A DNA stretch of 51,446 nucleotides, taken from NCBI GenBank assembly GCA_964556455.1, contig CAZKWI010000002.1:1-51446 (forward strand). Reading direction: 5' to 3'. Of this stretch, positions 28,169 to 51,433 are shown piece after piece. Numbering within the stretch: the first letter of the stretch is position 1; each line of letters begins with the position of its first letter. The position numbers and the translations under genes are program-made. The notes beneath the pieces were generated by a model. It had not been told where the DNA came from. It made no database searches and saw only the letters and a program-made list of their open reading frames with translations. This DNA comes from an uncultured Planctomycetia bacterium (GTDB lineage: Bacteria; Omnitrophota; Gorgyraeia; JABMRJ01).

Positions 28169-29413
28169 TCAATCCGTCTTCCATGAAATATCGGGCGGCT
28201 GATACACGCCGCAAAATTCCGGTCTGAGATATTTATCTTTGGGTATTTTTATATAAATTTTACTTTCTCTGTGTACAGCCAAAGAGATACTGCCCTTTAT
28301 GCTCCTGATCTCTATATCAAAAACAAGATCTCCGGGAGTTAAATTATGGTTTTTTACGGTTATCTCGACATGGCCCTTTTTGGTTTTAGGAAAAAAACCG
28401 CCCATATGGGAAAAGACCCCGAAACATTTGCATCCAACATCCTTTCTATAGACGACCAAAGAGAATGTTATATCATCGAGTGGATAATCAAGGCAATCGT
28501 AATCGAAGCCGGCGGTTATGGGCTCCTGATATTTCAGTTGCAGCTCATCGTCCGCCTCCCTGGCCCGCGCGATCTTTACGTTAGTAAGCAAGGCGCCGTC
28601 CGTTGGCTTGGGCTGCGGTACGCCTAACCCGCCGTACCAGCCTGTCTTCTTGGTCGCCTCGCGCTCGAGGATCTCCACCGCATCGATCGGCTCACCGTCC
28701 GCGATAAGCCTGCCTTCTTTGAGCAAAATCGCCCTGTCGCAGTAATTTTTAATGTGGTGCAGATTATGCGATACCATTATTACGGTGGCATTGCTTTTTT
28801 TCAGACCGTTCATATACTCAAGGCATTTTTGCTGGAATACGATATCCCCTACCGCTAATATTTCGTCTACCAATAAAATATCAGGGTCCAGATGCGCGGC
28901 TATGGCAAATCCCAGACGTATAAGCATTCCGGAAGAATACCTCTTTACCGGCGTATCGGCGAACTTTTTATAATCGCTGAACCCGTATCCCGCGAATTCT
29001 ATGATAGAATCGAATTTTTTATCGATCTCTTTTTTGGCCATCCCCATGATAGCGCCGTTCAGATAAATATTCTCCCTGCCCGTAAACTGCGGATTAAAAC
29101 CCGCCCCGGCGGCGATAAGACAGGAGACCCGCCCTTTTTTGATTATACTCCCTTTGTTAGGCCGCATTATGCCCGCAATAAGTTTCAGCGTGGTCGTCTT
29201 TCCCGCGCCGTTGGGGCCTATAATACCCAGGATCGCGCCTTTTTCAACTTTGAAAGACACTTCCTTGAGCGCCTGGAAGGTCATATCTGCCGCATGCGGG
29301 GTTCTTCCGACCAACCGGCCTAAGACGTTGGGGATGGCGTCGCGCAAGGCCGCAGCCCTTTCGCCGCGGTTGAAACTCTTCCATATATCGTTAAACTCGA
29401 TAGCGTATTCCAT
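28169..29413 (-). CDS. wzt: Polysaccharide ABC exporter ATP-binding protein with C-terminal Wzt_C-like carbohydrate-binding domain
   Basis: 414 aa. Walker A GPNGAGKTT, signature YSSGMLIRLGFA and Walker B ILLVDEILAVGD. There is a ~150-aa beta-rich extension after the NBD (..ITFSLVVYRKDVGCKCFGVFS..VEITVKNHNLTPGDLVFDIEI..). 1-nt overlap with the permease gene. Confidence 0.85.
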   Translation of the reverse strand: MEYAIEFNDIWKSFNRGERAAALRDAIPNVLGRLVGRTPHAADMTFQALKEVSFKVEKGAILGIIGPNGAGKTTTLKLIAGIMRPNKGSIIKKGRVSCLIAAGAGFNPQFTGRENIYLNGAIMGMAKKEIDKKFDSIIEFAGYGFSDYKKFADTPVKRYSSGMLIRLGFAIAAHLDPDILLVDEILAVGDIVFQQKCLEYMNGLKKSNATVIMVSHNLHHIKNYCDRAILLKEGRLIADGEPIDAVEILEREATKKTGWYGGLGVPQPKPTDGALLTNVKIARAREADDELQLKYQEPITAGFDYDCLDYPLDDITFSLVVYRKDVGCKCFGVFSHMGGFFPKTKKGHVEITVKNHNLTPGDLVFDIEIRSIKGSISLAVHRESKIYIKIPKDKYLRPEFCGVYQPPDISWKTD

Positions 29414-30195
29414 TAAATATTCTCGGCAAAGAGATGTTCCGTTCTATGAAATAAGAATGCTCCTATAAAAAATATAACTGCAGATATAACTATCGCGGGT
29501 AAGAGCTGGCCTATCTGCGGAAATTCGCCTTTCAGTATAAGCGTCCGGTACGCGTTCAATATAGGTGTCATGGGGTTAAGCATCAGTACCTTCTGCAGCG
29601 CGGGCGAATCCACGCTGATAGGATAGATGACAGAGGTTACAAACATCCACAGGATTATAACCACATCGAATATATACTTAACGTCGCGAAAAAATAAGTT
29701 TCCCATGGACAAAAGCAGGGAGAGGCCCATCATTAAAACAACCTGAATTAGAAGGATAAACGGGAATAGGAGCGCGGTGGCATGGAAGGGTATATGATAA
29801 AAAAACATCAATCCTACCAAAACAAGAGAGGCCACGCAAAGATCTATGAATCTTGCCAGTATTATCGCCAAAGGAAAGACCTCGCGGGGAAAATATATCT
29901 TGGTTATCAGGTCGGCGTTTCCCACCAGGCTGTTCGTGGCTGATGTCAATGAACCGGCAAAAAAAGTCCATGGCAGGATGCCGCAATAGGCGAATATAGG
30001 ATAAGGGATCTCGCCCGTGGATATTTTTGTAATCTTGGAAAAGACAAATGTAAAGATAAGCATCATGGCCAGCGGCGTAAAAACAGCCCAGGCCATCCCC
30101 AGCAGGGCCTGCTTATAGCGCACCTTTACTTCCTTGATGACCAGCCTCGAAAGCAATTCCCTGTATTGAAAAATCTCCTTTAGGGCAGTGGACAT
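29413..30195 (-). CDS. wzm: ABC-2 type polysaccharide exporter permease
   Basis: 260 aa with 6 hydrophobic segments. The N-terminus YRELLSRLVIKEVKVRYKQALLGMAWAVFTPL is typical of Wzm/KpsM/TagG. Confidence 0.8.
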   Translation of the reverse strand: MSTALKEIFQYRELLSRLVIKEVKVRYKQALLGMAWAVFTPLAMMLIFTFVFSKITKISTGEIPYPIFAYCGILPWTFFAGSLTSATNSLVGNADLITKIYFPREVFPLAIILARFIDLCVASLVLVGLMFFYHIPFHATALLFPFILLIQVVLMMGLSLLLSMGNLFFRDVKYIFDVVIILWMFVTSVIYPISVDSPALQKVLMLNPMTPILNAYRTLILKGEFPQIGQLLPAIVISAVIFFIGAFLFHRTEHLFAENI

Positions 30196-30235: not shown

Positions 30236-30958
30236 TCAGTCCTTTTCAGTATAGTCATAATAGTAATAATACGGATGCAGGCTTCTCATTTCCACCCTGT
30301 TAAATATCACCCCCAGGATGTGGGCTTTGGCGTTATTGAGCAGAGTCATGGCTCTCTGCACCGCGTCCCGGGGTGTCCGTTCCGCCATAATTACCAGGAG
30401 GACGCCGTCAACCAATGATCCTATAATAGTGGCGTCGGTCACAGCCAGTATGGACGCGCAATCGAATATGAACGTATCAAAATACCCCTTAATGTCTTCC
30501 AGCAGTTTCTCCATTTTATTTGAACCGATTAATTCTGACGGGTTCGGCGGTATTGAACCGCTGGTAATAATGCTTAAGTTCTCTATGCCTGACGGCTTTA
30601 GCGCCTTCTCCCAGCTTATTTTTCCGGTCAAGATTTCGGTCAGGCCCGGCGCTTTATCCAAACCGAAGATATTATGAAGCGTCGGTCTTCTCATATCGGT
30701 ATCGACCAGAAGTACGTTCCTGCCTATCTCGGCTATGGTTATCGCTAAATTCGCCGTAGTGATCGTCTTTCCTTCGCTCGGCCGGGAACTGGTGATAAGT
30801 ATCTTTCTTCCTTTCTGGGGCAGATTGGCATATTCTATATTCGTACGCAGGATGCGGTATGCTTCTGCCTCGGGTGATTTCGGGTCATAGTGAACGATCA
30901 ACCTGCTTTTAAGATCAGAGAGGGCCTCTTTAGGTCCCCTTTTTTTCCTTTCCGCCAT
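30236..30958 (-). CDS. BY-kinase (CpsD/CapB-type cytoplasmic tyrosine autokinase)
   Basis: 240 aa. Walker A SSRPSEGKT, Walker A' LLVDTDMRRP and Walker B-like FIFDCASIL. C-terminal tyrosine cluster HPYYYYYDYTEKD (30251..30271). Confidence 0.85.
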   Translation of the reverse strand: MAERKKRGPKEALSDLKSRLIVHYDPKSPEAEAYRILRTNIEYANLPQKGRKILITSSRPSEGKTITTANLAITIAEIGRNVLLVDTDMRRPTLHNIFGLDKAPGLTEILTGKISWEKALKPSGIENLSIITSGSIPPNPSELIGSNKMEKLLEDIKGYFDTFIFDCASILAVTDATIIGSLVDGVLLVIMAERTPRDAVQRAMTLLNNAKAHILGVIFNRVEMRSLHPYYYYYDYTEKD

Positions 30959-32496: not shown

Positions 32497-34002
32497 CTAT
32501 TCCTCTCGCTCATCTTCCGATTGGCCTGCTTTTTTTCTCTTCCTGTATAATCTCGTCGGCATCCTCTTCTTTTTTTCTCTTTTAAGATACTTGTCTACCT
32601 CCCGGCTGATCTTTTCTCCTTTGCCTATTTCTTTTTGGACAGCCTCTTCGGCTTTTTCTTCCGTTAAGATGCGGGGGGTTATGAATATCATTAATTCTGT
32701 CTTTTCCACGACATCATTTGTAGTCCTGAATAAAAGGCCCAAGAGCGGTATATCACCGAGAAAGGGGACCTTTTGCACGGTTTTAAGCTTCCTGTCCTGC
32801 AATAATCCCCCTATGATCAGCGTCTTTCCGTCCTTAACGTTCACATGGGTATTTGTTTTGCGTGAGGCCTTTATGGGAATATTTTCTCTTTCTCCCTGCA
32901 CAAACGAGACCTCCGGCTCCAATTCCATATTCACAACATCTCCTTTTCTTATGCGGGGAGTGACCTTGAGAATTACGCCGACATCCACAAAGCTGGTTGT
33001 ATAAACAGCCGTGCCCGCAGAGGTGTTCCCGGTCAGTGTGTTAAACGGGAGCTTGGTCACTATCTCTATCTTTGCTTCTTCTCCATTTTCTACTAAGATC
33101 TTAGGCTGGGCTAAAAGATCTGCTTTGTTCTCTGTAAGCAAAGCGTCGATCACTGAGCTGAAGTCATATTGGTCGATCATTTGACTGATAAAAAGGCTCC
33201 CTCCCGAGGTCAAGGTAGCGAGTCCGATATTAGGTATGAGTGTCCTTAATTCCTCCGCAATTACCGCCCCCTGTGAAACTTTCTCCTGAGTGGTCAATTC
33301 CGTTGATAACGGCGGAATGGTGTTACTTTTATTATAGGTCGCCCCGACAAAATTCGTCCCGCCGATCTTATCTATAAACCACCTTATCCCCAATTCCTTA
33401 TCAATGTCGGCCTTGACCTCTATGATCTGGGCTTCGATCAGGATCTGGCGTTTATCCGGGCCATAGATATCCAATTCCCTGATCACCCTTTCTATCCCCG
33501 CCAAATTGGCCGGGATGTCAGTGGCTATCAATGAATTTGTCACTTCATCAGCATAGATACTGCCTGTTTCCGAAACTACGCCCATAACAGCTTCCCTCAC
33601 GATGGCGGCCTTGGCATAGTTTAAGCTGATCACCCTGGTCGCCTGCGATCCAGACTCTCCTGCCACCCTTACTGTGGTGATCAGGCCTCCTGTCCCTACC
33701 CCTGTCTTTTGAACAGTCACTACCGGTTTTTTAATATACACGGCCAGCCTATCCCGCAGTTCTTTCTCGAGTTTTGGGATCGTATTGCCGGCTGCCTTCA
33801 CTTCTCCGATCAGGGGGAATACGATATAGCCCGCCTGGTCCAGATTAAGCACCCGGTCCAGGTCTGCCTGTCGTTTCAGGCGTATCTCAACAGTGTCTCC
33901 CGGTTTTAAAATTTCCTCTTCCGCCATAACCCCCAAAGTGAATATGCTCAGGGTCAATGCTGAAAGGATTAAAACAAATACCCTTGTCTTTTGCGCTATC
34001 AT
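32497..34002 (-). CDS. Outer-membrane chimera: signal peptide, Wza-type Poly_export (PES) domain, Secretin_N-like domain, secretin domain, basic tail
   Basis: 501 aa. Signal peptide ..LSIFTLGVMA. aa 31-97 LKPGDTVEIRL...LDQAGYIVFPLIGEVKAAGNTIPKLEKELRDRL..YIKKPVVTVQ matches the Poly_export pattern. aa 121-177 VISLNYAKAAIVREAV...ADEVTNSLIATDIPANLAGIERVIRELD is an N1-type secretin domain. aa ~186-446 ILIEAQIIEV...VPFLGDIPLLGLLFR...ELMIFITPRIL is the secretin C-domain signature. The last ~55 aa are Lys/Arg/Glu-rich. Confidence 0.75.
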   Translation of the reverse strand: MIAQKTRVFVLILSALTLSIFTLGVMAEEEILKPGDTVEIRLKRQADLDRVLNLDQAGYIVFPLIGEVKAAGNTIPKLEKELRDRLAVYIKKPVVTVQKTGVGTGGLITTVRVAGESGSQATRVISLNYAKAAIVREAVMGVVSETGSIYADEVTNSLIATDIPANLAGIERVIRELDIYGPDKRQILIEAQIIEVKADIDKELGIRWFIDKIGGTNFVGATYNKSNTIPPLSTELTTQEKVSQGAVIAEELRTLIPNIGLATLTSGGSLFISQMIDQYDFSSVIDALLTENKADLLAQPKILVENGEEAKIEIVTKLPFNTLTGNTSAGTAVYTTSFVDVGVILKVTPRIRKGDVVNMELEPEVSFVQGERENIPIKASRKTNTHVNVKDGKTLIIGGLLQDRKLKTVQKVPFLGDIPLLGLLFRTTNDVVEKTELMIFITPRILTEEKAEEAVQKEIGKGEKISREVDKYLKREKKKRMPTRLYRKRKKAGQSEDEREE

Positions 34003-34025
34003 CTTTTACTCCTTTATACTAAGCC

Positions 34026-34571
34026 TTAATCGCGGGGCTCGTATTCTTTATAATCTATTTCTAGGTCTTCTTCCATTTTCTGCCTGTATGTTTCGCCGTG
34101 GTCTTCCTGATATTGAGTAACAACATCTTCTTTCAGGTGCTCTTCCCATTTGTTCCCGTATTCTTCTTTATAAAGTTCTATCCCCTCGTCTTCATAGTCC
34201 TCTTTGAGTTTTTTCTTATATCTGGAACCATATTTTTTTTTATACTCTGCAATGACTTCCTCTTTCATTTTTTCCTTGTAGCCTTCTCCGTGCTCTGCCT
34301 TGTAATAAGCTTCGGTCTCTTCTCCAAAGTCTTCTTTGAGTTTCTTGCCCCATTTATCTCCATATCTTTCTTTGTATATAGATATAAGATTTTCTTTGGC
34401 GTCATTTACGATCTTCTTTTTGTAGGTGCCGAAAAAATTGATGACGCCCGGTTTGGTTACATCAGACCCAACGGCGCCGGTGTCCGCCATTTCTTTTTGA
34501 ATGCTCAACCTGTTTATCTGCCTAAAGCCGCCTTTTTTCTTGCCTGTATCAAGATTGATCAATTTCCCCAT
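34026..34571 (-). CDS. Tyr/Lys/Glu-rich repeat protein of unknown function (possibly secreted; CDS may extend to 34631 with an ATC start)
   Basis: 181 aa from the first ATG. Five or six degenerate ~20-24-aa repeats with core Y-K-x-x-[YH]-G-x-x-[WY]-x-x-[KH]-[LM]-K-E-[DE] (YKERYGDKWGKKLKED / YKAEHGEGYKEKMKEE / YKKKYGSRYKKKLKED / YKEEYGNKWEEHLKED / YQEDHGETYRQKMEED). I recognise no family. See the finding on the upstream in-frame signal-peptide-like extension. Confidence 0.6.
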   Translation of the reverse strand: MGKLINLDTGKKKGGFRQINRLSIQKEMADTGAVGSDVTKPGVINFFGTYKKKIVNDAKENLISIYKERYGDKWGKKLKEDFGEETEAYYKAEHGEGYKEKMKEEVIAEYKKKYGSRYKKKLKEDYEDEGIELYKEEYGNKWEEHLKEDVVTQYQEDHGETYRQKMEEDLEIDYKEYEPRD

Positions 34572-34702
34572 GGCTATGGCTGCGGCGATTATAATTATTA
34601 TAATTTTAAACTCTCTTTTTTCTTTTTTGATATCGCTTTACTCCTGTTTAACCTAAGGCCCTGTAATAAGCGCAGAATACGGCGCTGCCTTTATCTCTAT
34701 AT

Positions 34703-37384
34703 TTATTCCTGCTTTTTTAAATTGATCTCTTCTTTTTCGCCGTCTCCGTCTTTTAATGTGATACCCTTTGAAGATATATCCACAACCTCTTTGCCGTCAA
34801 TGAGATCCCCTACTTCTAAAATCTTGCTGTTTACAACAGCCGCCGCTTTATCGTCTTTTCCGATAATTCCATATATCAGCATAAGGTCTTGCTCATCCTC
34901 TCCCATCTGCTCTTTTTGCGCTTTCTCAAGCTCTGCCCTGGCCTTATCAATTCCTTCTTTTGCCTCCGTATTGTAAACATCCAGCGCTAAGACATCTCTC
35001 CATGCGTCTATAGCCTGTTGGTATTGACCGTTATCAAAATAGTCTTTAGCGGTTTTTAAAGGCGCTTCGATCTTTTGTTCTCTGGTAATCTCTCTTCCGG
35101 CCTGTTGAATTGCCAGGGTCTCTCCTGCAGGTCCTTGAATGTTCTCTTTTTCCGAACCAGCTTCTATTTTGGCGGCTTGCGCGACTTCTTTTATCTCACC
35201 AGGCCGCACAACTTCTTCTGTCTCGACAGCCCGCACAATCTCTTTTTTCTTTTTCGCTTCAACTTGCGCGGCTTCCATCTTCTTCTTCAGCAGCTCCTTC
35301 ATTGCAGCCGCGCGCTCTTCTTCTGCCAATATTGCGTCTACCTCCTCCAGCTGCTTCCTTGCTCCTCTGGCCCATTCCATGTCAGCAGAACGATTTAATG
35401 CCACTGCCCGAAACATCTTTCCCGCCTCTTCGTATTGTCCTAGCCTTTTAAAACAAATACCCATTTGATAATGTTCGAACCCCAGAGAAATGCCCTCCTG
35501 GAGATCTAACGCAGTTCTATATATTTGAATAGCTGCGTGAGGGCTATTCTGCCGCTGATAGCAATCGGCTAATGCGTAAAATGCCTCCATTAAAAACGGG
35601 CTATCCGGATATTTGCGGACTAACTTCTGGAATTCCTCAATTGCCCTGTCTAATAAACCCTGTTTTAAATAAATTGTGGCTATCCAATACTGGGCATAAC
35701 CGGCTTTGTCGCTAAGAGGATGGCTTAAAATCACCCTTTTGTATTCTTTGATCGCCTCTCCTTCCATGCCCAGCATTTCAAAACAACTGCCTATATAATA
35801 TTGCGCGTTTGCGCTCTGCTTTTTATCGGGGAACCTTTTAATAAATTCTCTATATCTGTTGATGGCCTTCTCATACTTCTTCGCTGCGTGCAGCTCCGAT
35901 GCTGCCTGGTACTGCACCACCGGGTCCCCTTTTCTGTGCAAAAAGCGCACCGCTGATCTTGATGCGATAATTACCATTATCCCAAGAACGATCATTTTAA
36001 ATATAGCCCATCTCTTTTCCTGCGTAATTGGCTCTTTTTTGCGCGGGCTTAATTTTTCCTTCTCCCGGGCTTCGGTTTTTTCTTTTTCAGGATCATCTCT
36101 TGTTTCTGCCAGCGCTGCTTCGTGAGGTTTTATTATCTTTTGGACCTTATTTACCCTGTCCCGCTTCTCAACCTGCGAGATCTTATCGCCCGGAGCGAAG
36201 AGGGTTAATATAAAGTCCACACCGGTCTCTACAAATTTAGGTTCTTTTAAACCATTCTCCTGAGCTGCCTTTTTTATGCGCCTGACACCCGTACCCAGCT
36301 TCTCGATATACCCCTCCATAAGCAGGAGGGCCTCAACGATTATCTTATTTCTTGAGTATTGCGTATATTCCATATTTTCCACTGTTACAGGGCCGGGCAA
36401 TCCTCCGGGTGTATATATCTCTATACGATCATCGAACATAAAGATCCTGATACACGCCTCCTTAAAATTATAATCGCGGTGCACTATGGCGTTAGCGACC
36501 GCCTCGCGGACAGCGACCAGAGGATACTCAGGAAGGTCCAGCCTCTTCAAGCCTTCAAACATCCCGCTTAACTTCATATGCCTGACCACAAACTGCTGCG
36601 CTTCGTCGATCATCTCAGGTATGGTCGCCCTCAGCTCTTTTCTATCTATTATCGAACCAGCTTTATCCGTACCCTTAAATTTTGCCATGTTTACGCTCGA
36701 GGACCACAGAAATCGCTGCGGATCCTTACCAAAGAGCAATAACCCCGCGGTAGAAGGCAGGAGGCTTCCATTGCGCCTGACCAGAATCCCTATATTCTCC
36801 AATAAGATCTTTGTGGAGATATCTTTTTCTGATTTAAATCTTTTCTTTCTCTTTTCGATATAATCCTCTATCTTAGCGGAGTCTAGATCGTTATATGTGG
36901 CCTTCTCCACTGGCAGGCTATCGCCCCCTACCCCTTTCTTAAAAAGCTTCCGGCCTGGCGACATAGATTGTATCTCGCCAGAGGCAGCCACGCGGACATG
37001 CTGGCCATCCCTGATATAACAGTGGCCCTCTGCATAATAAGGTTTATTTTTCCCCGCTTTAACAGAAACAGCCACTATATTTTTCCTGCCGACCTTCCTT
37101 ATGGCAACTTCGGGAATAACAGGCGGACTGCAACGGTCCTGCCCGATTTTAACCATGTCCTTCTCTATAGACTTTGAGCCGTATATATTGACGCCGACGA
37201 TTGTTTTTTCTTTAGGGTCGGCCCCGATAATTATCAACCCGCCGCTGGTGTTGGCAAAGCTGACCATTGTCCTTGCCAGGCTTAAAATATCGTTTTCTTT
37301 GACCGGTAGATCCGGCCTGAGCTCAACGTCCCGCCTGGGCCCCTGCTTCACCATCTCCTCTATCTGATAGCCTGTCAGATTCAC
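34703..37384 (-). CDS. Bitopic membrane protein: cytoplasmic AlbA_2 (Schlafen-type) and HATPase_c_4-like domains, one TM, periplasmic TPR repeats, coiled coil, GspB/PilP-like C-terminal domain
   Basis: 893 aa, GTG start with AGGAG 6 nt upstream. aa 1-~125 ..LSLARTMVSFANTSGGLIIIGAD.. is AlbA_2. aa ~285-395 ..YPLVAVREAVANAIVHRDY...IEIYTPGGLPG...GTGVRRI.. is HATPase_c_4-like. TM at aa 459-479, WAIFKMIVLGIMVIIASRSAV (35948..36010), preceded by basic residues. TPR-like repeats at aa ~493-670. Lys/Glu coiled coil. aa ~833-888 LMLIYGIIGKDDKAAAVVNSKILEVGDLIDGKEVVDISSKGITLKDGDGEKEEINL (34721..34888). Confidence 0.7.
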   Translation of the reverse strand: MNLTGYQIEEMVKQGPRRDVELRPDLPVKENDILSLARTMVSFANTSGGLIIIGADPKEKTIVGVNIYGSKSIEKDMVKIGQDRCSPPVIPEVAIRKVGRKNIVAVSVKAGKNKPYYAEGHCYIRDGQHVRVAASGEIQSMSPGRKLFKKGVGGDSLPVEKATYNDLDSAKIEDYIEKRKKRFKSEKDISTKILLENIGILVRRNGSLLPSTAGLLLFGKDPQRFLWSSSVNMAKFKGTDKAGSIIDRKELRATIPEMIDEAQQFVVRHMKLSGMFEGLKRLDLPEYPLVAVREAVANAIVHRDYNFKEACIRIFMFDDRIEIYTPGGLPGPVTVENMEYTQYSRNKIIVEALLLMEGYIEKLGTGVRRIKKAAQENGLKEPKFVETGVDFILTLFAPGDKISQVEKRDRVNKVQKIIKPHEAALAETRDDPEKEKTEAREKEKLSPRKKEPITQEKRWAIFKMIVLGIMVIIASRSAVRFLHRKGDPVVQYQAASELHAAKKYEKAINRYREFIKRFPDKKQSANAQYYIGSCFEMLGMEGEAIKEYKRVILSHPLSDKAGYAQYWIATIYLKQGLLDRAIEEFQKLVRKYPDSPFLMEAFYALADCYQRQNSPHAAIQIYRTALDLQEGISLGFEHYQMGICFKRLGQYEEAGKMFRAVALNRSADMEWARGARKQLEEVDAILAEEERAAAMKELLKKKMEAAQVEAKKKKEIVRAVETEEVVRPGEIKEVAQAAKIEAGSEKENIQGPAGETLAIQQAGREITREQKIEAPLKTAKDYFDNGQYQQAIDAWRDVLALDVYNTEAKEGIDKARAELEKAQKEQMGEDEQDLMLIYGIIGKDDKAAAVVNSKILEVGDLIDGKEVVDISSKGITLKDGDGEKEEINLKKQE

Positions 37385-37398
37385 AAAAACTCCTTTGC

Positions 37399-38208
37399 CT
37401 ATTGTTCGCTTTCCGCGTTCTTCTCCGCGTCTACCTTAAGCCAATATTCTATTTTATCCAGCTTTTCATAAAAATCATCCAGCGTGGCTTTGCGCTTTAG
37501 AACAACATCCCGTTCAGATGGTGCGTCCGGCTGCGATCTCTCTTTACTCACGGTGGTGCTTATATATCCAAAAGTTATCCCTGCCAATACCGATAAGGCT
37601 ATGACTATGAAATAAGTACTTGTACACACATCCTTAGCTCTGTGCAGGATAAACTCATAGAAAGAGGAATATAAAGACGCCATCTGCCTATCCAGGCTCT
37701 TTCCTGTTTTCCCGAGATTTTCGGTCCTGGTTATTACATCTTTTTTGAGAGAATTTAATTTCTGTATTATCGCTTCGCTCTGTGTAAGCTCTCCGCTAAA
37801 GACCTTCTCTAAACCCTCGCTGAACAGGACAGGCCTGGCCCTGGTATCTATAAGGAGGTGCTTGATCAATGCTTTAATATATTTTAAATCGAATGGTTTG
37901 GTAATATAGTCGAAGACGCCCAGATCGGTCGCCTCCTTTACGGACTTCATTTCTCCGTAACCGGTTATTATTACATTTATTACTGAACTATCGCTCTTTC
38001 TAATTCTGCGTATCGTCTCAACGCCGTCTATCCCGGGCATCTTCAGGTCAACCAGGGTCAGATCGACCTTCTTGTTCTTGACTATTTTTATTGCTTTTTC
38101 TCCGCTTGCCGCGGTTAAAACCTTATAGCCTTCTTTTTTTAAAACCTTGGATAAGATTTTTCTAACCCCGGCTTCATCATCTATTATTAAAATACGCGGT
38201 GCGGTCAT
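37399..38208 (-). CDS. Response regulator (REC domain) with C-terminal coiled segment and single TM anchor; no DNA-binding output domain
   Basis: 269 aa. ILIIDDEAGVRKIL...DLTLVDLKMPGIDG (acceptor Asp54)...ITKPFD. TM at aa ~197-219, STYFIVIALSVLAGITFGYISTT (37552..37620), followed by a ~50-aa charged tail. Confidence 0.85.
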   Translation of the reverse strand: MTAPRILIIDDEAGVRKILSKVLKKEGYKVLTAASGEKAIKIVKNKKVDLTLVDLKMPGIDGVETIRRIRKSDSSVINVIITGYGEMKSVKEATDLGVFDYITKPFDLKYIKALIKHLLIDTRARPVLFSEGLEKVFSGELTQSEAIIQKLNSLKKDVITRTENLGKTGKSLDRQMASLYSSFYEFILHRAKDVCTSTYFIVIALSVLAGITFGYISTTVSKERSQPDAPSERDVVLKRKATLDDFYEKLDKIEYWLKVDAEKNAESEQ

Positions 38209-38235
38209 AAGAAGGCTTCTTCCTCTTCAGTACCG

Positions 38236-38511
38236 TTATTGTTCAACTGCGGGTTTCCCTCTATTGGTCTTCTCCGCCATCAAGCTCATCCAGTCATCCA
38301 AAATTTTCTTTTTAAACCGCCAGCGCCCGCCAATTTTAAAAGCCGGGATCTTTCCCTGTTTGACCAATTTATACACGGTTATCTTGTGAATAGCCAAATA
38401 TGCAGCGACCTGAGCGGTATCCAGCAATTCCGGCGTTTCAGGATTCTCTTTCATTTTTCTGCTCTCTTTCTGCCTTATTTTTATCCATCCCCTTTGCGAT
38501 CCAACTGTCAA
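38236..38511 (-). CDS. HTH_17 (excisionase/MerR-like) small DNA-binding protein, copy 2
   Basis: LLDTAQVAAYLAIHKITVYKLVKQGKIPAFKIGGRWRFKKKILDDWM. The likely real start is the internal MKENPETPE (38454), which shortens the overlap with copy 1. Confidence 0.75.
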   Translation of the reverse strand: MTVGSQRGWIKIRQKESRKMKENPETPELLDTAQVAAYLAIHKITVYKLVKQGKIPAFKIGGRWRFKKKILDDWMSLMAEKTNRGKPAVEQ

Positions 38512-38665
38512 TGGTGCTCTTCTTAAAGCGCCACTGGCCGCCTATTTTAAAAGCGGGGATGATCCCCGCTTTGATCAGTTTATAGATCGTTATTTTGTGC
38601 ATAGTCAGGTATTCAGCCACTTCAGGGACGGTCATAATATTATCAGATCTTTTTTTCATATTCAT
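38438..38665 (-). CDS. HTH_17 (excisionase/MerR-like) small DNA-binding protein, copy 1
   Basis: IMTVPEVAEYLTMHKITIYKLIKAGIIPAFKIGGQWRFKKSTIDSWI. Tandem paralogue of 38236..38511. Confidence 0.75.
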   Translation of the reverse strand: MNMKKRSDNIMTVPEVAEYLTMHKITIYKLIKAGIIPAFKIGGQWRFKKSTIDSWIAKGMDKNKAEREQKNERES

Positions 38666-38670
38666 TTTGC

Positions 38671-38706
38671 GGCGGTATTAAAAACCGGTTTTTTTACTAG
38701 TCCGCC
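38671..38706 (-). promoter_or_regulatory. Palindromic element in the 5' leader of the first HTH_17 gene (candidate operator or leader hairpin)
   Basis: Perfect 14-bp palindrome AAAAACCGGTTTTT (38680..38693), bracketed by GGCGG (38671..38675) and CCGCC (38702..38706). It ends 6 nt upstream of the ATG at 38665. Confidence 0.3.
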
Positions 38707-38760
38707 TTATCTGTTATATGCTTTCGCTAACTTTTATTAGCTAATGTTATTTATTTATAA

Positions 38761-38789
38761 AGTTTACACGATATTTATTCATATGTCAA
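38761..38789 (-). promoter_or_regulatory. Sigma70-type promoter candidate for the HTH_17, response regulator and export-module genes
   Basis: Minus strand reads TTGACA (38789..38784), a 17-nt spacer (tatgaataaatatcgtg), then TAAACT (38766..38761). An A/T-rich UP-like tract lies immediately upstream. It sits in the only large intergenic gap of the window (38666..38919). Confidence 0.45.
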
Positions 38790-38919
38790 GTTACTGCTAT
38801 ATAAAGCTATTGTTTTTTATAAAGTGGGGTCCAGCGTTAAAATTGCGGGTTTCAGCGGTATGACTATACTACATAACTAAAGAAGCCATAACGGATTAAA
38901 GTAATATCTTCAGGCCGAG

Positions 38920-40197
38920 TCAGCCGGCAAGCTGTTCCGCCGGCAGCTCTATCCTGAATTCAGCTCCTTTGCCCGGCTTGCTATCCACCGTTATGTTACC
39001 CTTATGTTCGGTAATTATCCTCTGGCAGATAGAGAGTCCTAAACCAAGGTTTCCCGGGCGCCTGGTAGTAAAAAACGGATCGAATATCTTGTCTATTTGT
39101 TCGGGGGCGATACCAGGGCCTGAGTCTTTGAATTCGATCAATATAGACTTACTGTTTTTTATGTTTACTGTTGTTATGGTCAATCTTCCACCGCGAGGCA
39201 TCGCATATTTGGCATTTATTATTATATTCAAAAAGACCTCTTTAAGCTCATCAGGGTCAATAATCGTCCCGGGTAAAGAAGGGCTTAGGTTCTTAACGAT
39301 CTTTATCCCCTTCAGTGATATCTGGTATTTTACAAGGTTCAAGACCTCCATTATAATACTATTTACATCAATGGAAGTTCCTTCGTATTTAGACGGGCGG
39401 CTGTAGCGCAGGAGCCTCTGAATGATCTTTAAGCAGCGTTTACTTGCCTTGTCTATCTCTATCAGCTCATCCATCATGGGATCGTTCTTTGAGGTGTTGG
39501 AGATTAAATATTGAACATTGGCTGAAATCACGGCTAAGGGATTATCCAGCTCGTGCGCAATGCCCGCGGAGAGCTCTCCCAGGGTAGTCATTTTTTCATA
39601 TATTATCAGCTGTTTTCGCGTCTCCACGCATTTACGGCGAGCGCGTTCTGCCTCTTCATACAACCTCACGTGCCAGATAGCTATAGCCGCCTGGCTGGCG
39701 AGAAAGGAAATAAATTTCAGGTCGCCCTTGTCAAATTGAGATTCAGAGCGCAGGCTGTTTATATTAAGCACCCCGATGACCTTATGTTCTATCTTTAAAG
39801 GCACCGATATGGCCGATTTAATCTCGTTTTTTTTGGCGAATTTATAAAATCTCTTGTCTTTTCTCAAATTTCCTATAAGAAGAGTGCTCTCTCCTCTTTT
39901 GGCTACCCAGCCGGCTATTTCATCGCCGATTTTTATCCTTTTTGTTCTCATGATCTCCTTATCCAGGCCGACAGCCGCTTCTATGCCCAAGGTATGGGTC
40001 TTCTCATCCAATAACATCAAAGAACCTGTATTGCCGCCGGAGGCCTCGAGTGAAGTCTCCAGTATTTGCTGCAGTATTTTTTTAAGCTCATACGCGGTCA
40101 ACATCCTGGCGGCGATATCCAGCAGATCGTCCAGCCCTTCCAGGAAGGTCTTATCAGCGATCTTTCTTCTTTTGTTCTCTTTTGCCCGTTTATTCAT
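38920..40197 (-). CDS. Cytoplasmic sensor histidine kinase (GAF, HisKA, HATPase_c); no TM segment
   Basis: 425 aa. GAF-like region ILETSLEASGGNTGSLMLLDEKTHTL...IGVLNINS. H-box LGELSAGIAHELDNPL. N-box LNIIINAKYAM. G-boxes FKDSGPGI and GLGLGLSI. GAGGAG lies 6 nt upstream of the ATG. Confidence 0.85.
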   Translation of the reverse strand: MNKRAKENKRRKIADKTFLEGLDDLLDIAARMLTAYELKKILQQILETSLEASGGNTGSLMLLDEKTHTLGIEAAVGLDKEIMRTKRIKIGDEIAGWVAKRGESTLLIGNLRKDKRFYKFAKKNEIKSAISVPLKIEHKVIGVLNINSLRSESQFDKGDLKFISFLASQAAIAIWHVRLYEEAERARRKCVETRKQLIIYEKMTTLGELSAGIAHELDNPLAVISANVQYLISNTSKNDPMMDELIEIDKASKRCLKIIQRLLRYSRPSKYEGTSIDVNSIIMEVLNLVKYQISLKGIKIVKNLSPSLPGTIIDPDELKEVFLNIIINAKYAMPRGGRLTITTVNIKNSKSILIEFKDSGPGIAPEQIDKIFDPFFTTRRPGNLGLGLSICQRIITEHKGNITVDSKPGKGAEFRIELPAEQLAG

Positions 40198-42647: not shown

Positions 42648-44318
42648 TTACATGTATCCCAATGTCTCCAGCCTCTGTTTTATCCTTGACGATTCTTCCG
42701 GCGAATAGGGCACTCGTTCTCTCTCAGGCAATATCCCTTTATCATCGATATATTTTATTGGGTTTTTGTCCCTAAAGTTTTCTGTAAATATCCCCTCCAT
42801 CACCCTGCCGTCCATGCTTAAAGGGATTTTTTCGCCCATAGAATAAAGGACCGTGGGGGCCAGGTCGGCTATGCCGGCTTCGCTGAGTTTCCCTCCCTTC
42901 CGGATATTGGGCCCCTTGGCGGCAAATATCCCCTCTATTCTATGCGTTCCTGACCATGGCATTATATCAGAAGAGGCGGCGTTCCTTTTGGTATTTCCCG
43001 GAATTTCAGGAAAGACCGCTTCTTCGGCAAAATCGATGATTACATCAGCCAATCTATCAACATATTTACCGCTATAGGCCTCTTCTCTCTTATATGCGGC
43101 CTTAACGAGCTTTTCACCTGTTGGTGACCTCAAACTGCTGAGTTTATTCTTCAATAGATCCCGTAAGTTTTCATACTCTTCTCCGGGCCTGACTATTCCC
43201 CGGGGCTCTCTCTTTTCCAGATTGATCCATATGTTCTTGCTTAAGCAGACAGACGGCAGGACATAGGCCCTGGTCCGGGGCCAGTCTACCCCGCTCAGGA
43301 ACGATCTGGAAATAAAATTTTTTGCCTGCGCAAAAAACATGGATTTCAAATACCGCTTTATTTCCGGGCTTATATGTCTTTTTATACCGGTCATTATGCG
43401 CTCAATATGCGGATCAAAGATCGTCGATCTTCCGCTTTTTAACTTCATAAAACCATTCTCGCACAGCCATCTATTTAATGACAGGGCGTTATTGAGATCG
43501 AGCGGGCCCATGCCATGATCAGAGATCAACATTACAGTTACATCCTTTTCAGTTTTACTGAGGATATCGCCGGTAAGGCGGTCCATGTCTTCGTAAGTCT
43601 TAAAAATAGCATCCCTGTAAGCTTCCGCCCCTTTCTCATCATACTGGGGATGGCGCCCATCCATACAATGCCAAAAAAAATGCCCCACCCTGTCCGGGGC
43701 CGTAAAGACCATCATAAAAAAGTCCCATGGATATTTCTCCATAAGATATAAAGCGACGTCTTTTCGTTTTTCTTCCACCGACCGGATATTCTGCAGGATC
43801 CTGCCCGCCGTGCTGTATTTCAGGCTCCCCTGAAGAGGATATTCAACAACATAGTCGCCGAACCGTTTCTCTATTTCGGCGAGGACCCCCCGGGGATAGG
43901 CAAAATCAGACCTTACGTCCGGGGCATTTACGCCGGGGAGCAGTATGCCGTTAAACTCGTCGGGAGGATACGTAAACGGGATATTTATAAGAATGGATCT
44001 TTTATCTCCGCCCAGGAGTGACCATAGGGGTTCGGCCTTTCTAAACGAAGCGTTTATAAATCGCTGGGAATAGTCCCTCGGCTGGAATTCGAAAAAATTA
44101 GGGATCCCGTGCTTGCCTGGGTTTTTGCCTGTGGTTATTGTTGTCCAGGCTGCGGCAGAATTATAATTATGCACCGAATTGCATACAGAAGAAACCCCTT
44201 CATTTATAAGGCGCGAGATGTTCGGCAGCCTTCCCTTCCAGGCCATAGGCAAGATTATATCAAAGGTGGCGCTATCCAGCCCTATAACTAAAACCTTTTG
44301 CCTTATATTTCTTTTCAT
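42648..44318 (-). CDS. Alkaline-phosphatase-superfamily protein (type I phosphodiesterase/nucleotide pyrophosphatase-like), copy 2
   Basis: 556 aa. KVLVIGLDSATFDII..., ..AAAWTTITTGKNPGKHGI.., ..FFWHCMD.., ..MLISDHGMGP... No TM or signal peptide is evident. Confidence 0.75.
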   Translation of the reverse strand: MKRNIRQKVLVIGLDSATFDIILPMAWKGRLPNISRLINEGVSSVCNSVHNYNSAAAWTTITTGKNPGKHGIPNFFEFQPRDYSQRFINASFRKAEPLWSLLGGDKRSILINIPFTYPPDEFNGILLPGVNAPDVRSDFAYPRGVLAEIEKRFGDYVVEYPLQGSLKYSTAGRILQNIRSVEEKRKDVALYLMEKYPWDFFMMVFTAPDRVGHFFWHCMDGRHPQYDEKGAEAYRDAIFKTYEDMDRLTGDILSKTEKDVTVMLISDHGMGPLDLNNALSLNRWLCENGFMKLKSGRSTIFDPHIERIMTGIKRHISPEIKRYLKSMFFAQAKNFISRSFLSGVDWPRTRAYVLPSVCLSKNIWINLEKREPRGIVRPGEEYENLRDLLKNKLSSLRSPTGEKLVKAAYKREEAYSGKYVDRLADVIIDFAEEAVFPEIPGNTKRNAASSDIMPWSGTHRIEGIFAAKGPNIRKGGKLSEAGIADLAPTVLYSMGEKIPLSMDGRVMEGIFTENFRDKNPIKYIDDKGILPERERVPYSPEESSRIKQRLETLGYM

Positions 44319-44405
44319 CCCGCTTCTCCGTTGTCTTATCCTTTTTCAAGAGGGGGATCCGGGACGCGCCCCCCTTCCTGCGCGTTACCGCGCCATGATC
44401 CCGGT

Positions 44406-46157
44406 CTAGATATAACCGATGGACTTTAACTTATTTTCAATCGCGTCTTTTTCTTCCTGGGAATAGATTTCGGGCCCGGTCTTAATGAAAGGCTCTTCGG
44501 CCCGAGAATGCCGGACGGGATTTGCCTTCATAAAAGACCCGTTGAATATGTGATCCAGAACTCTGCCATCCATGTTTTTGGATACAGGCAAACCCAGACA
44601 ATGGAGTACGGTTGGCGCAACATCGGTTATCTGGGCCTTGTCAAAATTCCCGGTATTTTTTATATGAGGGCCTCTGGCTAAGAAAATGCCGGCCCTTCTG
44701 TGTTGGCCGGAAAGCCGCATATACCTGTGTCTATCCGAGAATGGGTAGGCGGCATCTGCCCTGTCAGGCCACACCGCTGTCATGTCACCTAAAAATCTCT
44801 CCCGCCATTCGATTATTATATCCGGCGCGGATCCCAGATATTTGCCCCGGTAAAGTTCCTCTCTTTTATAAGCCTTCTTGATCAGTCCTTCGCCGGTCTC
44901 GGGGAGTTTTATCTCTTCGAGCCGCTTGATGATCTCTTCTCTCAGGGCTTCATATTCAGCGCCGGGCTCTACAGTGCCCCTCGGCTGGCGGCCTTTCCGG
45001 TTTATTACTATAGACGTGGATATCTTCTCCCCAAAAGGACTATAGGCCTTTGTATTGCGCCAGTCGACACATGAAAGAAGATACCGGCTCTTCGCGTCTT
45101 TCTTCGCCTTATTGATCAATTTGTAAAGCTTGAGCCTCTTCGCCTTATCTATAACAGGCTTGAGGCTAAGGTAGCTGTTAAGAAGCAGCCTCCACGCCTT
45201 ATCCTTTAAGGCCTCTTTAGGTAGCTTTAGATATCCTTCCTGATTTAACCATAGATTCAGATCAAGGTATGGGCAGGTTCCATGGAACGGCCCCATACCA
45301 TGGTCGGAGACGATGATTATTGTTACTTCCCGGCCCAGGCCCGAAATGATAGTCTCGATGGCTTTATCCAGCTTCTCATAAGTCCTCCTTATCGCGTCCC
45401 TATACCCCCGGCTCCTTTTTTCGCTGAAGCGGGCGTGATCGCTGTCCATACAATGCCAGAATATATGCGGCATCCTGTCGGAAGCGACGAAGACCACACT
45501 GAGAAAATCCCAGGGGTATCTATCCATTAGATACCTTGTAACCTCGGCCCTTTTTTCAACAGTACGTTCCATAGCCTTCAGGATCTTATCGGCTTCTCTG
45601 TAGCTCGTCTTTCCCCAAAATGAAGGCTCTATCTCGTAACCGCCGACATATCTTTGTATCTCGTCATAAAGCTGGGCGGGATAGGTAATATCGGCCGGCC
45701 CTCCCGGCGAGCCTGCCCCGGCTATGAAGAAACCGTTAACATTTTCAGGAGGGAATGTAAACGGGACATTTATAACGCCCACCTTAAAGCCGCGCTCGCT
45801 CAATGTGGTCCATAACGGCTTTGCTTTACAGGACCTTAGGCTTACAACCCCTGTGTCATAATCTCCCCTCTTCAATGCCCTCAAGCCAAATATACCGTGT
45901 TTACCGGGGTTTGTGCCGGTAACTAAACTCGCCCAGGCTACAGTCGATACGTATGGAACTGTCGAAATCAACTCTCCATGCACTCCCTCATCTAAAAACC
46001 TGGCTATGGTAGGGAGCCTCCCCTCTCGGACCAGGGGCCTTATCAGATCCAAGGTCGCCCCGTCCAATCCTATCAGCAGCACCTTCTTGCGTTTATTCAC
46101 CCCTGGAATCCCTCCATATGCGGCGATAAGCCTTGAATGCGCCTTGTAGCGGTTCAA
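44406..46157 (-). CDS. Alkaline-phosphatase-superfamily protein (type I phosphodiesterase/nucleotide pyrophosphatase-like), copy 1
   Basis: 583 aa. KVLLIGLDGATLDLI..., ..TVAWASLVTGTNPGKHGI.., ..IFWHCMD.., ..IIVSDHGMGP... Colinear paralogue of 42648..44318. A GTG at 46100 (VNKRKKVLLIG) is a plausible alternative start that reduces the overlap with 46093..47001. Confidence 0.75.
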   Translation of the reverse strand: MNRYKAHSRLIAAYGGIPGVNKRKKVLLIGLDGATLDLIRPLVREGRLPTIARFLDEGVHGELISTVPYVSTVAWASLVTGTNPGKHGIFGLRALKRGDYDTGVVSLRSCKAKPLWTTLSERGFKVGVINVPFTFPPENVNGFFIAGAGSPGGPADITYPAQLYDEIQRYVGGYEIEPSFWGKTSYREADKILKAMERTVEKRAEVTRYLMDRYPWDFLSVVFVASDRMPHIFWHCMDSDHARFSEKRSRGYRDAIRRTYEKLDKAIETIISGLGREVTIIIVSDHGMGPFHGTCPYLDLNLWLNQEGYLKLPKEALKDKAWRLLLNSYLSLKPVIDKAKRLKLYKLINKAKKDAKSRYLLSCVDWRNTKAYSPFGEKISTSIVINRKGRQPRGTVEPGAEYEALREEIIKRLEEIKLPETGEGLIKKAYKREELYRGKYLGSAPDIIIEWRERFLGDMTAVWPDRADAAYPFSDRHRYMRLSGQHRRAGIFLARGPHIKNTGNFDKAQITDVAPTVLHCLGLPVSKNMDGRVLDHIFNGSFMKANPVRHSRAEEPFIKTGPEIYSQEEKDAIENKLKSIGYI

Positions 46158-48372: not shown

Positions 48373-48391
48373 CTTTTAATTAAAGGCCCTC

Positions 48392-49309: not shown

Positions 49310-49312
49310 CTT

Positions 49313-50815: not shown

Positions 50816-50821
50816 TAGATA

Positions 50822-51433
50822 CTACCCCCATCGTAAAAGCTTCAACATCAAAATAACGAGCGTCTTTGCTATGATCTTAAGATCAAGCCGGAGTGACCAA
50901 TTATCTATGTACTCCAGGTCCAGTTCTATCAGTTTATTGAAGTCGAGATCATCTTTTACGCACCTTAACTGCCTCAAGCCGGTTATGCCGGGCTTTACAG
51001 CGAGCCGTCTGCGCTGCCAATGTTGATACATCCGCGCCTGTTCCAGCATATGGGGCCTTGGCCCAACCAGGCTCATCTGGCCGCGGATCACATTCCACAA
51101 CTGCGGTAATTCATCGATATAGGTCCTCCGGAGGAATTCCCCGAATTTCGTGGCATATAAACCATGATCTATAGATCTGAACTTGTACATAGTAAAGCTC
51201 TCGCCAAAAAACCCCGCCCTCTTCTGCCTAAAGATTATAGGCCCTTTTAATGTAACCTTAACAGCGACCGCCACTAATAAGAAAACCGGGGAGAAAAAAA
51301 GTAAGAAAAATGAGGCAAAAAAAAGGTCAAACGCTCTCTTTGAATAAAATTCAGGGCTAATGGTGTAAGGGGCGCGTTTCCTTCGCGCGTAAGCTTTCTT
51401 CTTAGGAGTTATAGCCTCTAAGACCCGTATCAT
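50822..51433 (-). CDS. Small monotopic phosphoglycosyl transferase (bacterial sugar transferase family; initiating undecaprenyl-phosphate sugar-phosphate transferase)
   Basis: 203 aa. Re-entrant hydrophobic helix FDLFFASFFLLFFSPVFLLVAVAV, then GPIIFRQKRAG..FTMYKFRS...DELPQLWNVIRGQMSLVGPRP. Confidence 0.85.
   Translation of the reverse strand: MIRVLEAITPKKKAYARRKRAPYTISPEFYSKRAFDLFFASFFLLFFSPVFLLVAVAVKVTLKGPIIFRQKRAGFFGESFTMYKFRSIDHGLYATKFGEFLRRTYIDELPQLWNVIRGQMSLVGPRPHMLEQARMYQHWQRRRLAVKPGITGLRQLRCVKDDLDFNKLIELDLEYIDNWSLRLDLKIIAKTLVILMLKLLRWG

Follow-up and report, generated by a model that had tools for sequence, protein, structure and literature searches.

A Poly_export domain fused to a secretin: a candidate outer-membrane translocon for polysaccharide export in an uncultured Planctomycetia bacterium

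Results

A Poly_export domain takes the place of N0 in a secretin

The window analyzed here is a stretch of 51,446 nucleotides (contig CAZKWI010000002.1, positions 1 to 51,446; assembly GCA_964556455.1) from an uncultured Planctomycetia bacterium that GTDB places in Omnitrophota. One of its genes encodes a 501-residue chimera, in which the polysaccharide export sequence (PES) domain of OPX (outer-membrane polysaccharide export) proteins is joined to a secretin. Judged by its architecture and synteny, this chimera is rather likely to be the outer-membrane translocon of a polysaccharide export machine that depends on a polysaccharide co-polymerase (PCP) and a bacterial tyrosine kinase (BY-kinase), with the secretin replacing the usual OPX solution. 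The coordinates of the chimera and of its neighbors are collected in Table 1.

The chimera starts with a Sec signal peptide (MIAQKTRVFVLILSALTLSIFTLGVMA/EEE, cleaved at about VMA/EEE), in which no lipobox cysteine is found. Three Pfam domains follow, each above its cut-off: Poly_export (PF02563, the PES, or Wza-D1, domain; residues 30-98, 65.0 bits versus 28), a single copy of the N3-like Secretin_N (PF03958; residues 122-179, 45.4 bits versus 28.2), and Secretin (PF00263; residues 287-446, 163.1 bits versus 27.5), with positions 1-168 of the 169 in the last profile covered. The linker between the first two domains is disordered (residues 101-118), and a Lys/Glu-rich C-terminal helix extends beyond the secretin core, which ends at about residue 446.

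The chimera lacks features that define each of the families from which its modules come. No match to STN or GspD_N0 was found in it, residues 30-98 being occupied by Poly_export instead, whereas ordinary secretins (P0229 and P0246) do carry STN/N0. Likewise, no SLBB domain (D2/D3) was matched after D1, in contrast to the nearest short OPX proteins (P0121 and P0123, which have PF10531 and PF22461), and no Wza_C amphipathic helix was matched in the chimera, whose C-terminal part is secretin. The chimera also stays below the equivalog cut-offs for GspD (TIGR02517, 226 bits versus 351.35) and PilQ (TIGR02515, 214.5 bits versus 284.35), and it reaches no NCBIfam equivalog. Because the defining features of each family are missing, the chimera is not a member of any one of them. 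It is set apart from every single known family as a novel combination of known modules. An ordinary PilQ or GspD was considered as an identity for this protein and is ruled out by the missing N0, the sub-cut-off equivalog scores, and the lack of partners.

The predicted fold agrees with these assignments. An AlphaFold2 (AF2) model of the monomer, built on 50 sequences, has a predicted local distance difference test score (pLDDT) above 90 for the PES domain (residues 30-100), of about 90 for the N domain, and of 70-90 for the secretin core. When this model was compared with the PDB using Foldseek, the GspD, PilQ, InvG, and pIV secretins matched at E-values of 1e-17 to 1e-11, while the Class-3 OPX protein WzaB (9n9a) matched at 1.3e-5 and Wza at about 1e-4. 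Wza (7xfd_A) superposes on the PES domain of the chimera over 82 columns with a root-mean-square deviation of 1.0 Å. The nearest PES-only relatives are short OPX proteins of 180-199 aa; used alone as a word-index query, the PES fragment returned only three short OPX proteins and did not recover the close family. A preliminary description of this locus, made from the sequence alone, had read the protein as a PES domain grafted onto a secretin. Both its identification of the N-terminal domain as Poly_export and the graft itself are borne out by the Pfam scores and by a fold that matches secretins as well as Wza and WzaB.

PES-secretins recur in independent assemblies and form two clades

We searched a collection of 5.8 billion clusters and found five with closely shared architecture (identities of 88, 65, 49, 49, and 47%), after which the score falls from 417 to 183 bits and reaches ordinary secretins. 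In an exhaustive HMMER search of 1.84 billion representatives, whose top 150 matches were classed by Pfam and by a local PES profile, the architecture was present in at least 10 clusters (50% identity) among those 150 matches; distant members recovered in this way had been missed by a word-index search with a 13-sequence alignment. A metagenome scan contributed four further PES-secretin loci from JGI metagenomes. Overall, the family spans 28-88% identity in assemblies from JGI, ENA, Logan, and NCBI, and the PES domain scores 56-67 bits against its cut-off of 28 in every member tested. As a weak negative, none of the best 80 matches in species-representative genomes, obtained with patterns from the secretin core, carries a PES domain, all being ordinary secretins. 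In the library of papers searched in full text, an OPX-secretin fusion is not described, nor does any paper contain PF02563 together with PF00263.

When N3 and the secretin core alone are compared, PES-secretins fall into two deep clades, which a quick neighbor-joining tree (without support values) keeps apart. Clade A contains the group of the window together with P0124/P0290 and stands next to the ordinary secretins P0127 and P0141, and clade B comprises 15 sequences. The two clades may stem from separate fusions. The nearest ordinary secretins come from metagenome-assembled genomes (MAGs) of Poribacteria, Omnitrophota, Eisenbacteria, Elusimicrobia, and Planctomycetia; for clade B, a DUF1559-type N_methyl/SBP_bac_10 gene in two loci (L087 and L095) hints at Planctomycetota.

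Other unusual architectures were seen among the secretins compared. The closest ordinary secretins (P0006, P0010, P0016, P0017, P0107, and others, from Omnitrophota, Poribacteria, and related MAGs) often have N-terminal fusions to TonB_C, TonB_2, STN, TPR, or YfiO, so that an exchange of N-terminal domains seems to be frequent in this region of the secretin tree. The representative library also holds giant secretins (P0126, P0128, and P0140; many of 3000-5500 aa), which combine N0/STN with 12-20 tandem Secretin_N domains and one secretin. Those tested are 1417-3491 aa long, and others reach 5532 aa. With their rings stacked, such proteins would form an extraordinarily long periplasmic or extracellular conduit.

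PES-secretin genes are followed by a PCP gene in both clades

The genomic neighborhood ties the chimera to glycan export. In all 17 PES-secretin loci with downstream sequence, the gene immediately downstream encodes a PCP or a PCP-BY-kinase, compared with a PCP-like gene nearby in 1 of 156 ordinary-secretin loci used as a control. In that single exception (L105), the secretin is a PilQ of the pilMNOPQ type and the PCP-like gene lies two genes away in an unrelated glycan cluster, so that the proximity looks coincidental. Coincidental adjacency of PES-secretins to glycan loci was itself considered as an explanation and is ruled out by the difference between 17/17 and 1/156. In the window, the PES-secretin gene is followed without a gap by that of the PCP, whose start codon begins at the base right after the stop codon. 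No second PES-domain protein was found within 10 kb in any fetched PES-secretin locus.

The clade A loci (L001, L002/L003, L084, L085, and L089/L090) repeat the gene order of the window: GAF kinase, REC protein with a transmembrane (TM) helix, HATPase_c_4-TM-TPR protein, PES-secretin, PCP, and BY-kinase. What follows the kinase varies, with Wzm in L001, L002, and L003 (L001 also has Wzt) and a Wzy_C-type protein in L089. The clade B loci (L086-L088, L091-L095, L097, and L098) have a different order, namely, an ExeA-like AAA_22 ATPase, a large TPR protein, the PES-secretin, a 750-aa PCP-BY-kinase fusion, and a Wzy_C-like protein. Upstream of five clade B modules (L086, L087, L093, L095, and L098), a divergent FHA-GAF-HD (HD_5) gene lies on the opposite strand, and the vicinity of L087 also contains a PilZ gene and a sigma-54 response regulator. 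This FHA-GAF-HD and PilZ context suggests control by a nucleotide second messenger, in parallel to the GAF kinase of clade A.

The same neighborhoods bear on other possible cargoes. In the best-surviving alternative, which we nevertheless regard as unlikely, the channel exports proteins or protein-glycan conjugates: it would be the missing outer-membrane exit of exosortase/PEP-CTERM-type systems, its wide secretin pore passing processed surface proteins, possibly attached to exopolysaccharide (EPS), and the PES domain would merely tether the pore to the EPS machinery. Folded proteins are the classical cargo of secretins. In L089, moreover, the co-directional string of genes runs on via glycosyltransferases to an exosortase EpsH (TIGR02602, 177.5 bits versus a cut-off of 105.55) and EpsI, and the best model for the clade B ATPase is TIGR03015, the XrtA/PEP-CTERM-associated ATPase (159.5 bits). 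The PES, PCP, and kinase parts also score best against XrtA-associated models, and the route of PEP-CTERM proteins across the outer membrane is unresolved (PMC1569441). These XrtA-model scores are, however, all below the trusted cut-offs: the chimera reaches 51.5 bits against 180 for the XrtA-type export model TIGR03027, the PCP 169.9 against 278.85 for its best specific model (TIGR03007, the XrtA-system chain-length determinant), and the kinase 156.2 against 230.65 for TIGR03018 (XrtA-associated tyrosine autokinase). In addition, neither an exosortase nor a PEP-CTERM protein was found in the window or in the clade B flanks, and the invariant neighbor is the PCP/BY-kinase, not an exosortase.

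Still less likely, in our assessment, is a working secretin of a type II secretion system (T2SS) or type IV pilus (T4P) whose ATPase, platform protein, and (pseudo)pilins have their genes elsewhere and whose PES domain merely serves to co-localize pilus or protein secretion with the EPS factory, as in cyanobacteria and myxobacteria. PilQ/GspD has been tied to slime secretion (PMC12475490). The chimera keeps a full secretin core with conserved motifs, and a GspB-like partner domain is present (see below). T2SSE-family ATPases occur within 5 kb in L086 and L087, the latter with a pilin-like N_methyl gene as well. Nonetheless, these ATPases are of different kinds and orientations and have no conserved counterpart in L095 and L098, in whose flanks no full-length ATPase comparable to T2SSE was found, and no T2SS or T4P genes were found in the window, L001, or L089. 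The chimera also lacks N0, the part that engages GspC or PilP platforms, and its gene is translationally abutted to that of the PCP. The preliminary description had raised the question of whether orthologous loci always sit inside T4P or T2SS operons; they do not, the PCP/BY-kinase being the constant neighbor and a T2SS/T4P ATPase not being conserved. Finally, a mis-assembly or frameshift that fused OPX and secretin genes, or a chance N-terminal match, is suggested by the metagenomic source and the rarity of close relatives (five clusters in 5.8 billion) and has next to no chance of being correct, as it is effectively refuted by the same uninterrupted architecture in the independent assemblies described above, by the PES scores in every member tested, and by the confidently modeled Wza-like fold.

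Altogether, these results support the glycan export machine with a secretin channel that the preliminary description had proposed, operating with a PCP and BY-kinase and not as a T2SS or T4P part: the chimera is real and recurrent, its linkage to the PCP is without exception in the loci that could be read downstream, and no T2SS/T4P partner is conserved.

A bitopic scaffold protein ends in a GspB-like domain

The large protein encoded upstream of the chimera in the window (893 aa) consists of AlbA_2 (residues 32-131), HATPase_c_4 (312-395), a TM helix (about 459-483), a YbgF/BamD-like TPR region (about 485-690), a coiled linker, and a small GspB-like beta domain (about 830-885). By its predicted topology, the protein is bitopic, with AlbA_2 and HATPase_c_4 in the cytoplasm and the TPR region in the periplasm.

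The C-terminal domain had been described as GspB/PilP-like, of which the GspB likeness stands. No match to Pfam T2SSB or PilP was found in the C-terminus (T2SSB at E-values up to 10), its only Pfam match being CdsD_C, just below the cut-off (26.1 bits versus 27), and a sequence search of the PDB gave no meaningful match. In a jackhmmer search over the fetched loci, however, this C-terminus retrieves the C-terminal ends of small proteins whose genes lie directly upstream of those for ordinary secretins. Those proteins do match Pfam T2SSB (31.7 bits in L028 versus a cut-off of 28.4), and hhalign aligns the two sets with a probability of 95.7% (E = 9.6e-9). The domain is present in the L002 orthologue and absent from the L001 and L089 orthologues, and it is therefore accessory, not core.

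A different terminal domain is seen in L085, a relative with 65% identity. There, the coiled-coil protein encoded upstream of the repeat-protein gene (positions 3-884) ends in an STN/N0-like domain instead of a GspB-like one, which gives the impression that N0, lacking in the PES-secretin, is provided in trans.

Regulatory genes and the intergenic region

The REC protein has its receiver domain at residues 6-115, a TM helix at 193-220, and a periplasmic tail of about 50 aa; no DNA-binding output domain was found in it. Clade A has conserved the GAF kinase together with the REC-TM protein, and in both L001 and L089 the kinase gene lies directly upstream of the REC gene, whose product has the same layout. 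The GAF histidine kinase is thus the probable partner of the REC-TM protein. The preliminary description had given the module its own two-component and HTH control. The genes for the two-component half of that proposal are kept in these relatives, whereas L001 and L089 both lack the HTH_17 pair.

A sigma-70-like site (TTGACA-17-TAAACT, 38789..38761 on the minus strand, score 10/12) lies inside the 254-bp gap and is plausible as a promoter, although the match is suggestive only: a scan of 14 kb gave 34 promoter-like sites against 22.5 expected by chance, several others also scoring 10/12. The site near 38.78 kb therefore exists, in the largest gap of the window, but it is not demonstrably the only strong promoter-like element, as had been claimed. 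No sigma-54 promoter was seen on reading the sequence of the gap. A direct repeat, ACTTTATAAA (minus strand, 38751-38825, copies 62 bp apart), flanks and overlaps the sigma-70-like site. The repeat may serve the two HTH_17 proteins as an operator or may be a chance occurrence in AT-rich DNA.

A Glu/Lys/Tyr repeat protein with a probable non-canonical start

Between the genes for the chimera and the scaffold lies a gene for a protein with five copies of a 16-residue repeat, Y-[KQ]-x2-[YH]-G-x2-[WY]-x2-[KH]-[LM]-[KE]-E-[ED]. It had been called probably secreted. The repeats are confirmed, but the 181-aa protein read from the ATG at 34571 has no signal peptide, and a hydrophobic N-terminal helix arises only with an in-frame ATC start at 34631. 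Comparison with relatives favors this longer form. The L002 orthologue has ATT where the window has ATC, and a Shine-Dalgarno-like motif lies 7-9 nt upstream of this codon. Across the intervening stretch (34572-34631 in the window, 575-622 in L002), no ATG, GTG, or TTG is shared, and the codons are conserved as hydrophobic residues. The L001 and L085 orthologues have ordinary TTG starts and the same hydrophobic helix. We conclude that the gene probably starts at ATC 34631 (ATT in L002) and, given this revision, that the protein is probably membrane anchored. Gene callers place the start inside or after the hydrophobic helix.

Orthologues were found in L001, L002/L003, L084, and L085, i.e., they are confined to the sub-clade of the window. 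The protein matches no Pfam family, and a single-sequence structural model was uninformative (mean pLDDT of 47.8).

The surrounding locus

The window is a single co-directional glycan locus, on the minus strand over all 51 kb. Besides the PES-secretin module, it encodes glycosyltransferases, methyltransferases, B12-radical-SAM enzymes, two Wzy_C-type proteins, a priming Bac_transf, and a second, Wzz-only PCP. For positions 32497-40197, the coordinates and domain calls of the preliminary description were reproduced almost exactly.

Table 1. Features of the PES-secretin module and of the genes beside it (all positions refer to the window)
Feature	Coordinates	Strand	Basis and remarks
ABC ATPase, Wzt/TagH-like, 414 aa, with C-terminal extension	28169..29413	-	PF00005; Wzt/RfbE and TagH models
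ABC-2 permease, Wzm/KpsM-like	29413..30195	-	PF01061; KpsM and Wzm models; kept in L001, L002, and L003
Cytoplasmic BY-kinase, separate polypeptide, PCP-2b style	30236..30958	-	TIGR01007, 199.8 bits versus cut-off of 108
PCP (Wzz and GNVR), TM helices 20-42 and 424-447, periplasmic part of about 380 aa	30958..32496	-	Pfam, TM prediction
PES-secretin chimera, 501 aa	32497..34002	-	Pfam, NCBIfam, AF2 model, Foldseek, family alignment
Glu/Lys/Tyr repeat protein	34026..34631 (probable revised start; ATG call, 34026..34571)	-	Sequence; no Pfam family
AlbA_2/HATPase_c_4-TM-TPR protein, 893 aa	34703..37384	-	Pfam, NCBIfam, TM prediction
REC protein with C-terminal TM helix	37399..38208	-	PF00072 at 6-115; TM 193-220
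HTH_17 protein 2, small, DNA-binding (excisionase/MerR-like)	38236..38454	-	PF12728, 61.8 bits; start codon read from sequence
HTH_17 protein 1, small, DNA-binding	38438..38665	-	PF12728, 63.9 bits
AT-rich intergenic region, 254 bp, largest non-coding gap of the window	38666..38919	-	Sigma-70-like site and direct repeat
Cytoplasmic GAF-HisKA-HATPase_c histidine kinase	38920..40197	-	Pfam; no TM helix

Among the 44 open reading frames (ORFs) of at least 150 aa in the window, there is no T2SS/T4P ATPase, platform protein, or Wza, and no pilin gene of T2SS/T4P type was found in the window. A tblastn search with short OPX proteins revealed no second PES domain in the 51 kb, so that the chimera carries the single one. 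No candidates for SLBB, Wza_C, or a beta-barrel of the Wzp/GfcD-like kind were present among the window ORFs, the sole ORF left without a family assignment in the barrel check being 14427-15050 (207 aa). The L001 orthologue of the ABC ATPase carries Wzt_C.

The locus combines a Wzy-type set (Bac_transf, Wzz-only PCP, and Wzy_C; 47014-51433) with an ABC-transporter set (Wzm/Wzt; 28169-30195), and the second Wzy_C/WaaL-like gene adjoins a GT9 heptosyltransferase-like gene (1519-4107). The locus may serve two polymers, or one exported polymer and a form linked to lipopolysaccharide. Several unusual fusions and pairs occur as well: a GT2-radical-SAM protein (609 aa; 26279-28108), a GT4-methyltransferase-GT4 protein (1077 aa; 4104-7337), a GT4-methyltransferase protein (701 aa; 11530-13635), and two adjacent type-I phosphodiesterase-family proteins (42648-46157). 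Together with the several B12-radical-SAM enzymes, they imply a heavily modified glycan.

Discussion

In the polysaccharide export machine that we favor, multimers of the chimera would form the outer-membrane channel, the secretin supplying oligomerization and membrane anchoring. The loss of the lipobox, of SLBB D2/D3, and of the Wza_C helix would be explained because the secretin would provide oligomerization, anchoring, and the pore, leaving the chimera with only the PCP-docking part of an OPX protein. Wza and secretins alike have their N-terminal domain at the end closest to the inner membrane. The PES ring would lie at this inner-membrane-proximal end, in the usual place of N0, and would dock on the helical-arm tips of the PCP, in the way that D1 of Wza docks on Wzc. 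Polymer would reach the periplasmic face via Wzm/Wzt in the sub-clade of the window, or via a Wzy_C-type protein in relatives, and would then pass from the PCP cage through the secretin vestibule to the outside. Given the order PES-N3-secretin, this polarity fits the published contacts of WzaB, a Class-3 OPX protein that touches the PCP and the porin by opposite termini and needs lipidation to oligomerize at the outer membrane (PMC12819527), and those of Wza, which rests on the Wzc helical arms, four arms being enough for recruitment (PMC12881504).

The accessory proteins can be placed in the same scheme. The 893-aa protein would act like a fused GspA/GspB, that is, as a periplasmic scaffold anchored in the inner membrane that positions the secretin or helps to assemble it, and the GspB-like end domain would contribute to this step in the present genome. 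In line with the GspA/B analogy, clade B has its ExeA-like (TIGR03015) ATPase and large TPR protein in the position of the scaffold. The cytoplasmic GAF kinase would phosphorylate the membrane-anchored REC protein and thereby tune the machine directly, not via transcription.

Several points weigh against this interpretation. Secretins are 12- to 15-mers and PCPs are octamers, so that docking implies a symmetry mismatch. It normally takes a pilus, pseudopilus, or needle to open a secretin gate, and no such piston is encoded here. A PES domain alone, without D2/D3, is not known to bind a PCP. A T2SSE-family ATPase does lie close to two clade B loci, L086 and L087, and a conventional OPX protein or a T2SS could be encoded outside the 51-kb window. 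The neighbor-joining tree does not unite the two clades, which makes generalizing from one to the other uncertain, and neither the GspB-like domain nor the repeat protein is conserved across the family.

Taking the family as a whole, we see about an even chance that PES-secretins are a fourth, undescribed class of outer-membrane polysaccharide translocon, in which a secretin has lost N0-N2, gained a PCP-docking PES domain, and serves a Wzc-type machine with no pilus or pseudopilus. The wide secretin pore may pass glycans that are unusually bulky, heavily modified, or protein-linked (exosortase-type).

Among known systems, the Class-3 OPX proteins and Wzp barrels of Myxococcus xanthus (WzaB/WzaX/WzaS, WzpB/X/S, and WzcB; PMC9603273, PMC9601211, PMC12819527) resemble the PES-secretins in that the OPX part has no membrane-spanning helix of its own and works with a separate kind of pore, with the N-terminal PES/D1 toward the PCP and the C-terminal side toward the pore, and in being encoded beside a PCP and BY-kinase. 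The closest PES-only relatives of the chimera are likewise short OPX proteins, and its best OPX match by Foldseek is WzaB (9n9a). The pore of the chimera, by contrast, is a covalently fused secretin instead of an 18-strand barrel of the Wzp/GfcD type; SLBB D2 and the lipobox are missing, and a far larger multimer is expected. With the Class-1 OPX system Wza-Wzc of Escherichia coli (2J58, 9R64; PMC12881504, PMC13469938), the PES-secretin loci share PES/D1, a long periplasmic PCP region (about 380 aa here), the BY-kinase, and OPX-PCP adjacency, and the shared principle is probably a channel that runs without a break from the PCP cage to the outer-membrane pore. Unlike Wza, the chimera has no D2/D3, no alpha-helical Wza_C barrel, and no lipidation; its kinase is a separate polypeptide and its pore a gated beta-barrel secretin.

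The T2SS and T4P secretins (GspD/PilQ with GspA-GspB/ExeAB, GspC-HR, and PilP) share with the chimera the secretin core and an N3-type domain, an upstream bitopic protein with a GspB-like end, and the pairing of a cytoplasmic NTPase-like module with a periplasmic scaffold (HATPase_c_4-TM-TPR here, and ExeA-like AAA_22 with a TPR protein in clade B). In the chimera, however, N0, N1, and N2 are replaced by PES, no GspE/F/G-K or PilB/C/M-O set accompanies it, and the partner is a PCP/BY-kinase. The XrtA/PEP-CTERM EPS loci (an EpsE/F/G-type trio described by TIGR03027/03007/03018, the TIGR03015 ATPase, and PrsK/R/T; PMC1569441) are alike in supplying the specific models that score best with the PES, PCP, and kinase parts, in the EpsH and EpsI of L089, and in the TIGR03015-like ATPase of clade B, and their PrsK/PrsR/PrsT are echoed by the GAF kinase, response regulator, and TPR protein. 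They differ in that no score reaches its trusted cut-off, an exosortase is missing from the window, the regulator there lacks a sigma-54 module, and the canonical OPX protein of those loci is a short stand-alone protein and not a secretin fusion. In secretin-dependent slime and hormogonium polysaccharide secretion of cyanobacteria and myxobacteria (PMC12475490), a secretin has likewise been proposed as the exit for exopolymers, but those secretins are ordinary PilQ/GspD of T4P/T2SS, lacking a PES domain and any demonstrated link to a PCP, whereas here the link is made in the polypeptide and in the operon. An analysis based on TCDB placed the OMA (OPX) and Secretin families as mutual nearest neighbors in a superfamily tree (PMC4827864), and PES-secretin chimeras could partly account for this neighborship.

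The field is still working out how a polysaccharide gets through the outer membrane if its OPX protein lacks a membrane-spanning part, and the beta-barrel (Wzp) answer came only in 2022-2026. A PES domain covalently joined to a secretin and paired with a PCP/BY-kinase would be another solution. Such a class is invisible in existing annotation, in which PES-secretins, where annotated at the source, are labeled only "GspD/PulD (secretin)". For exosortase/PEP-CTERM loci, it offers a lead on two points, the unexplained ExeA-like ATPase and the outer-membrane exit, by providing a candidate for each. It also lends independent, sequence-encoded support to the debated proposal that secretins conduct exopolymers, and it does so as a testable model with an identified docking module (PES), pore (secretin), and partner (PCP). 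PES-secretins would thus link two families of machines that have been treated apart, OPX/PCP glycan export and secretin-based protein and pilus export.

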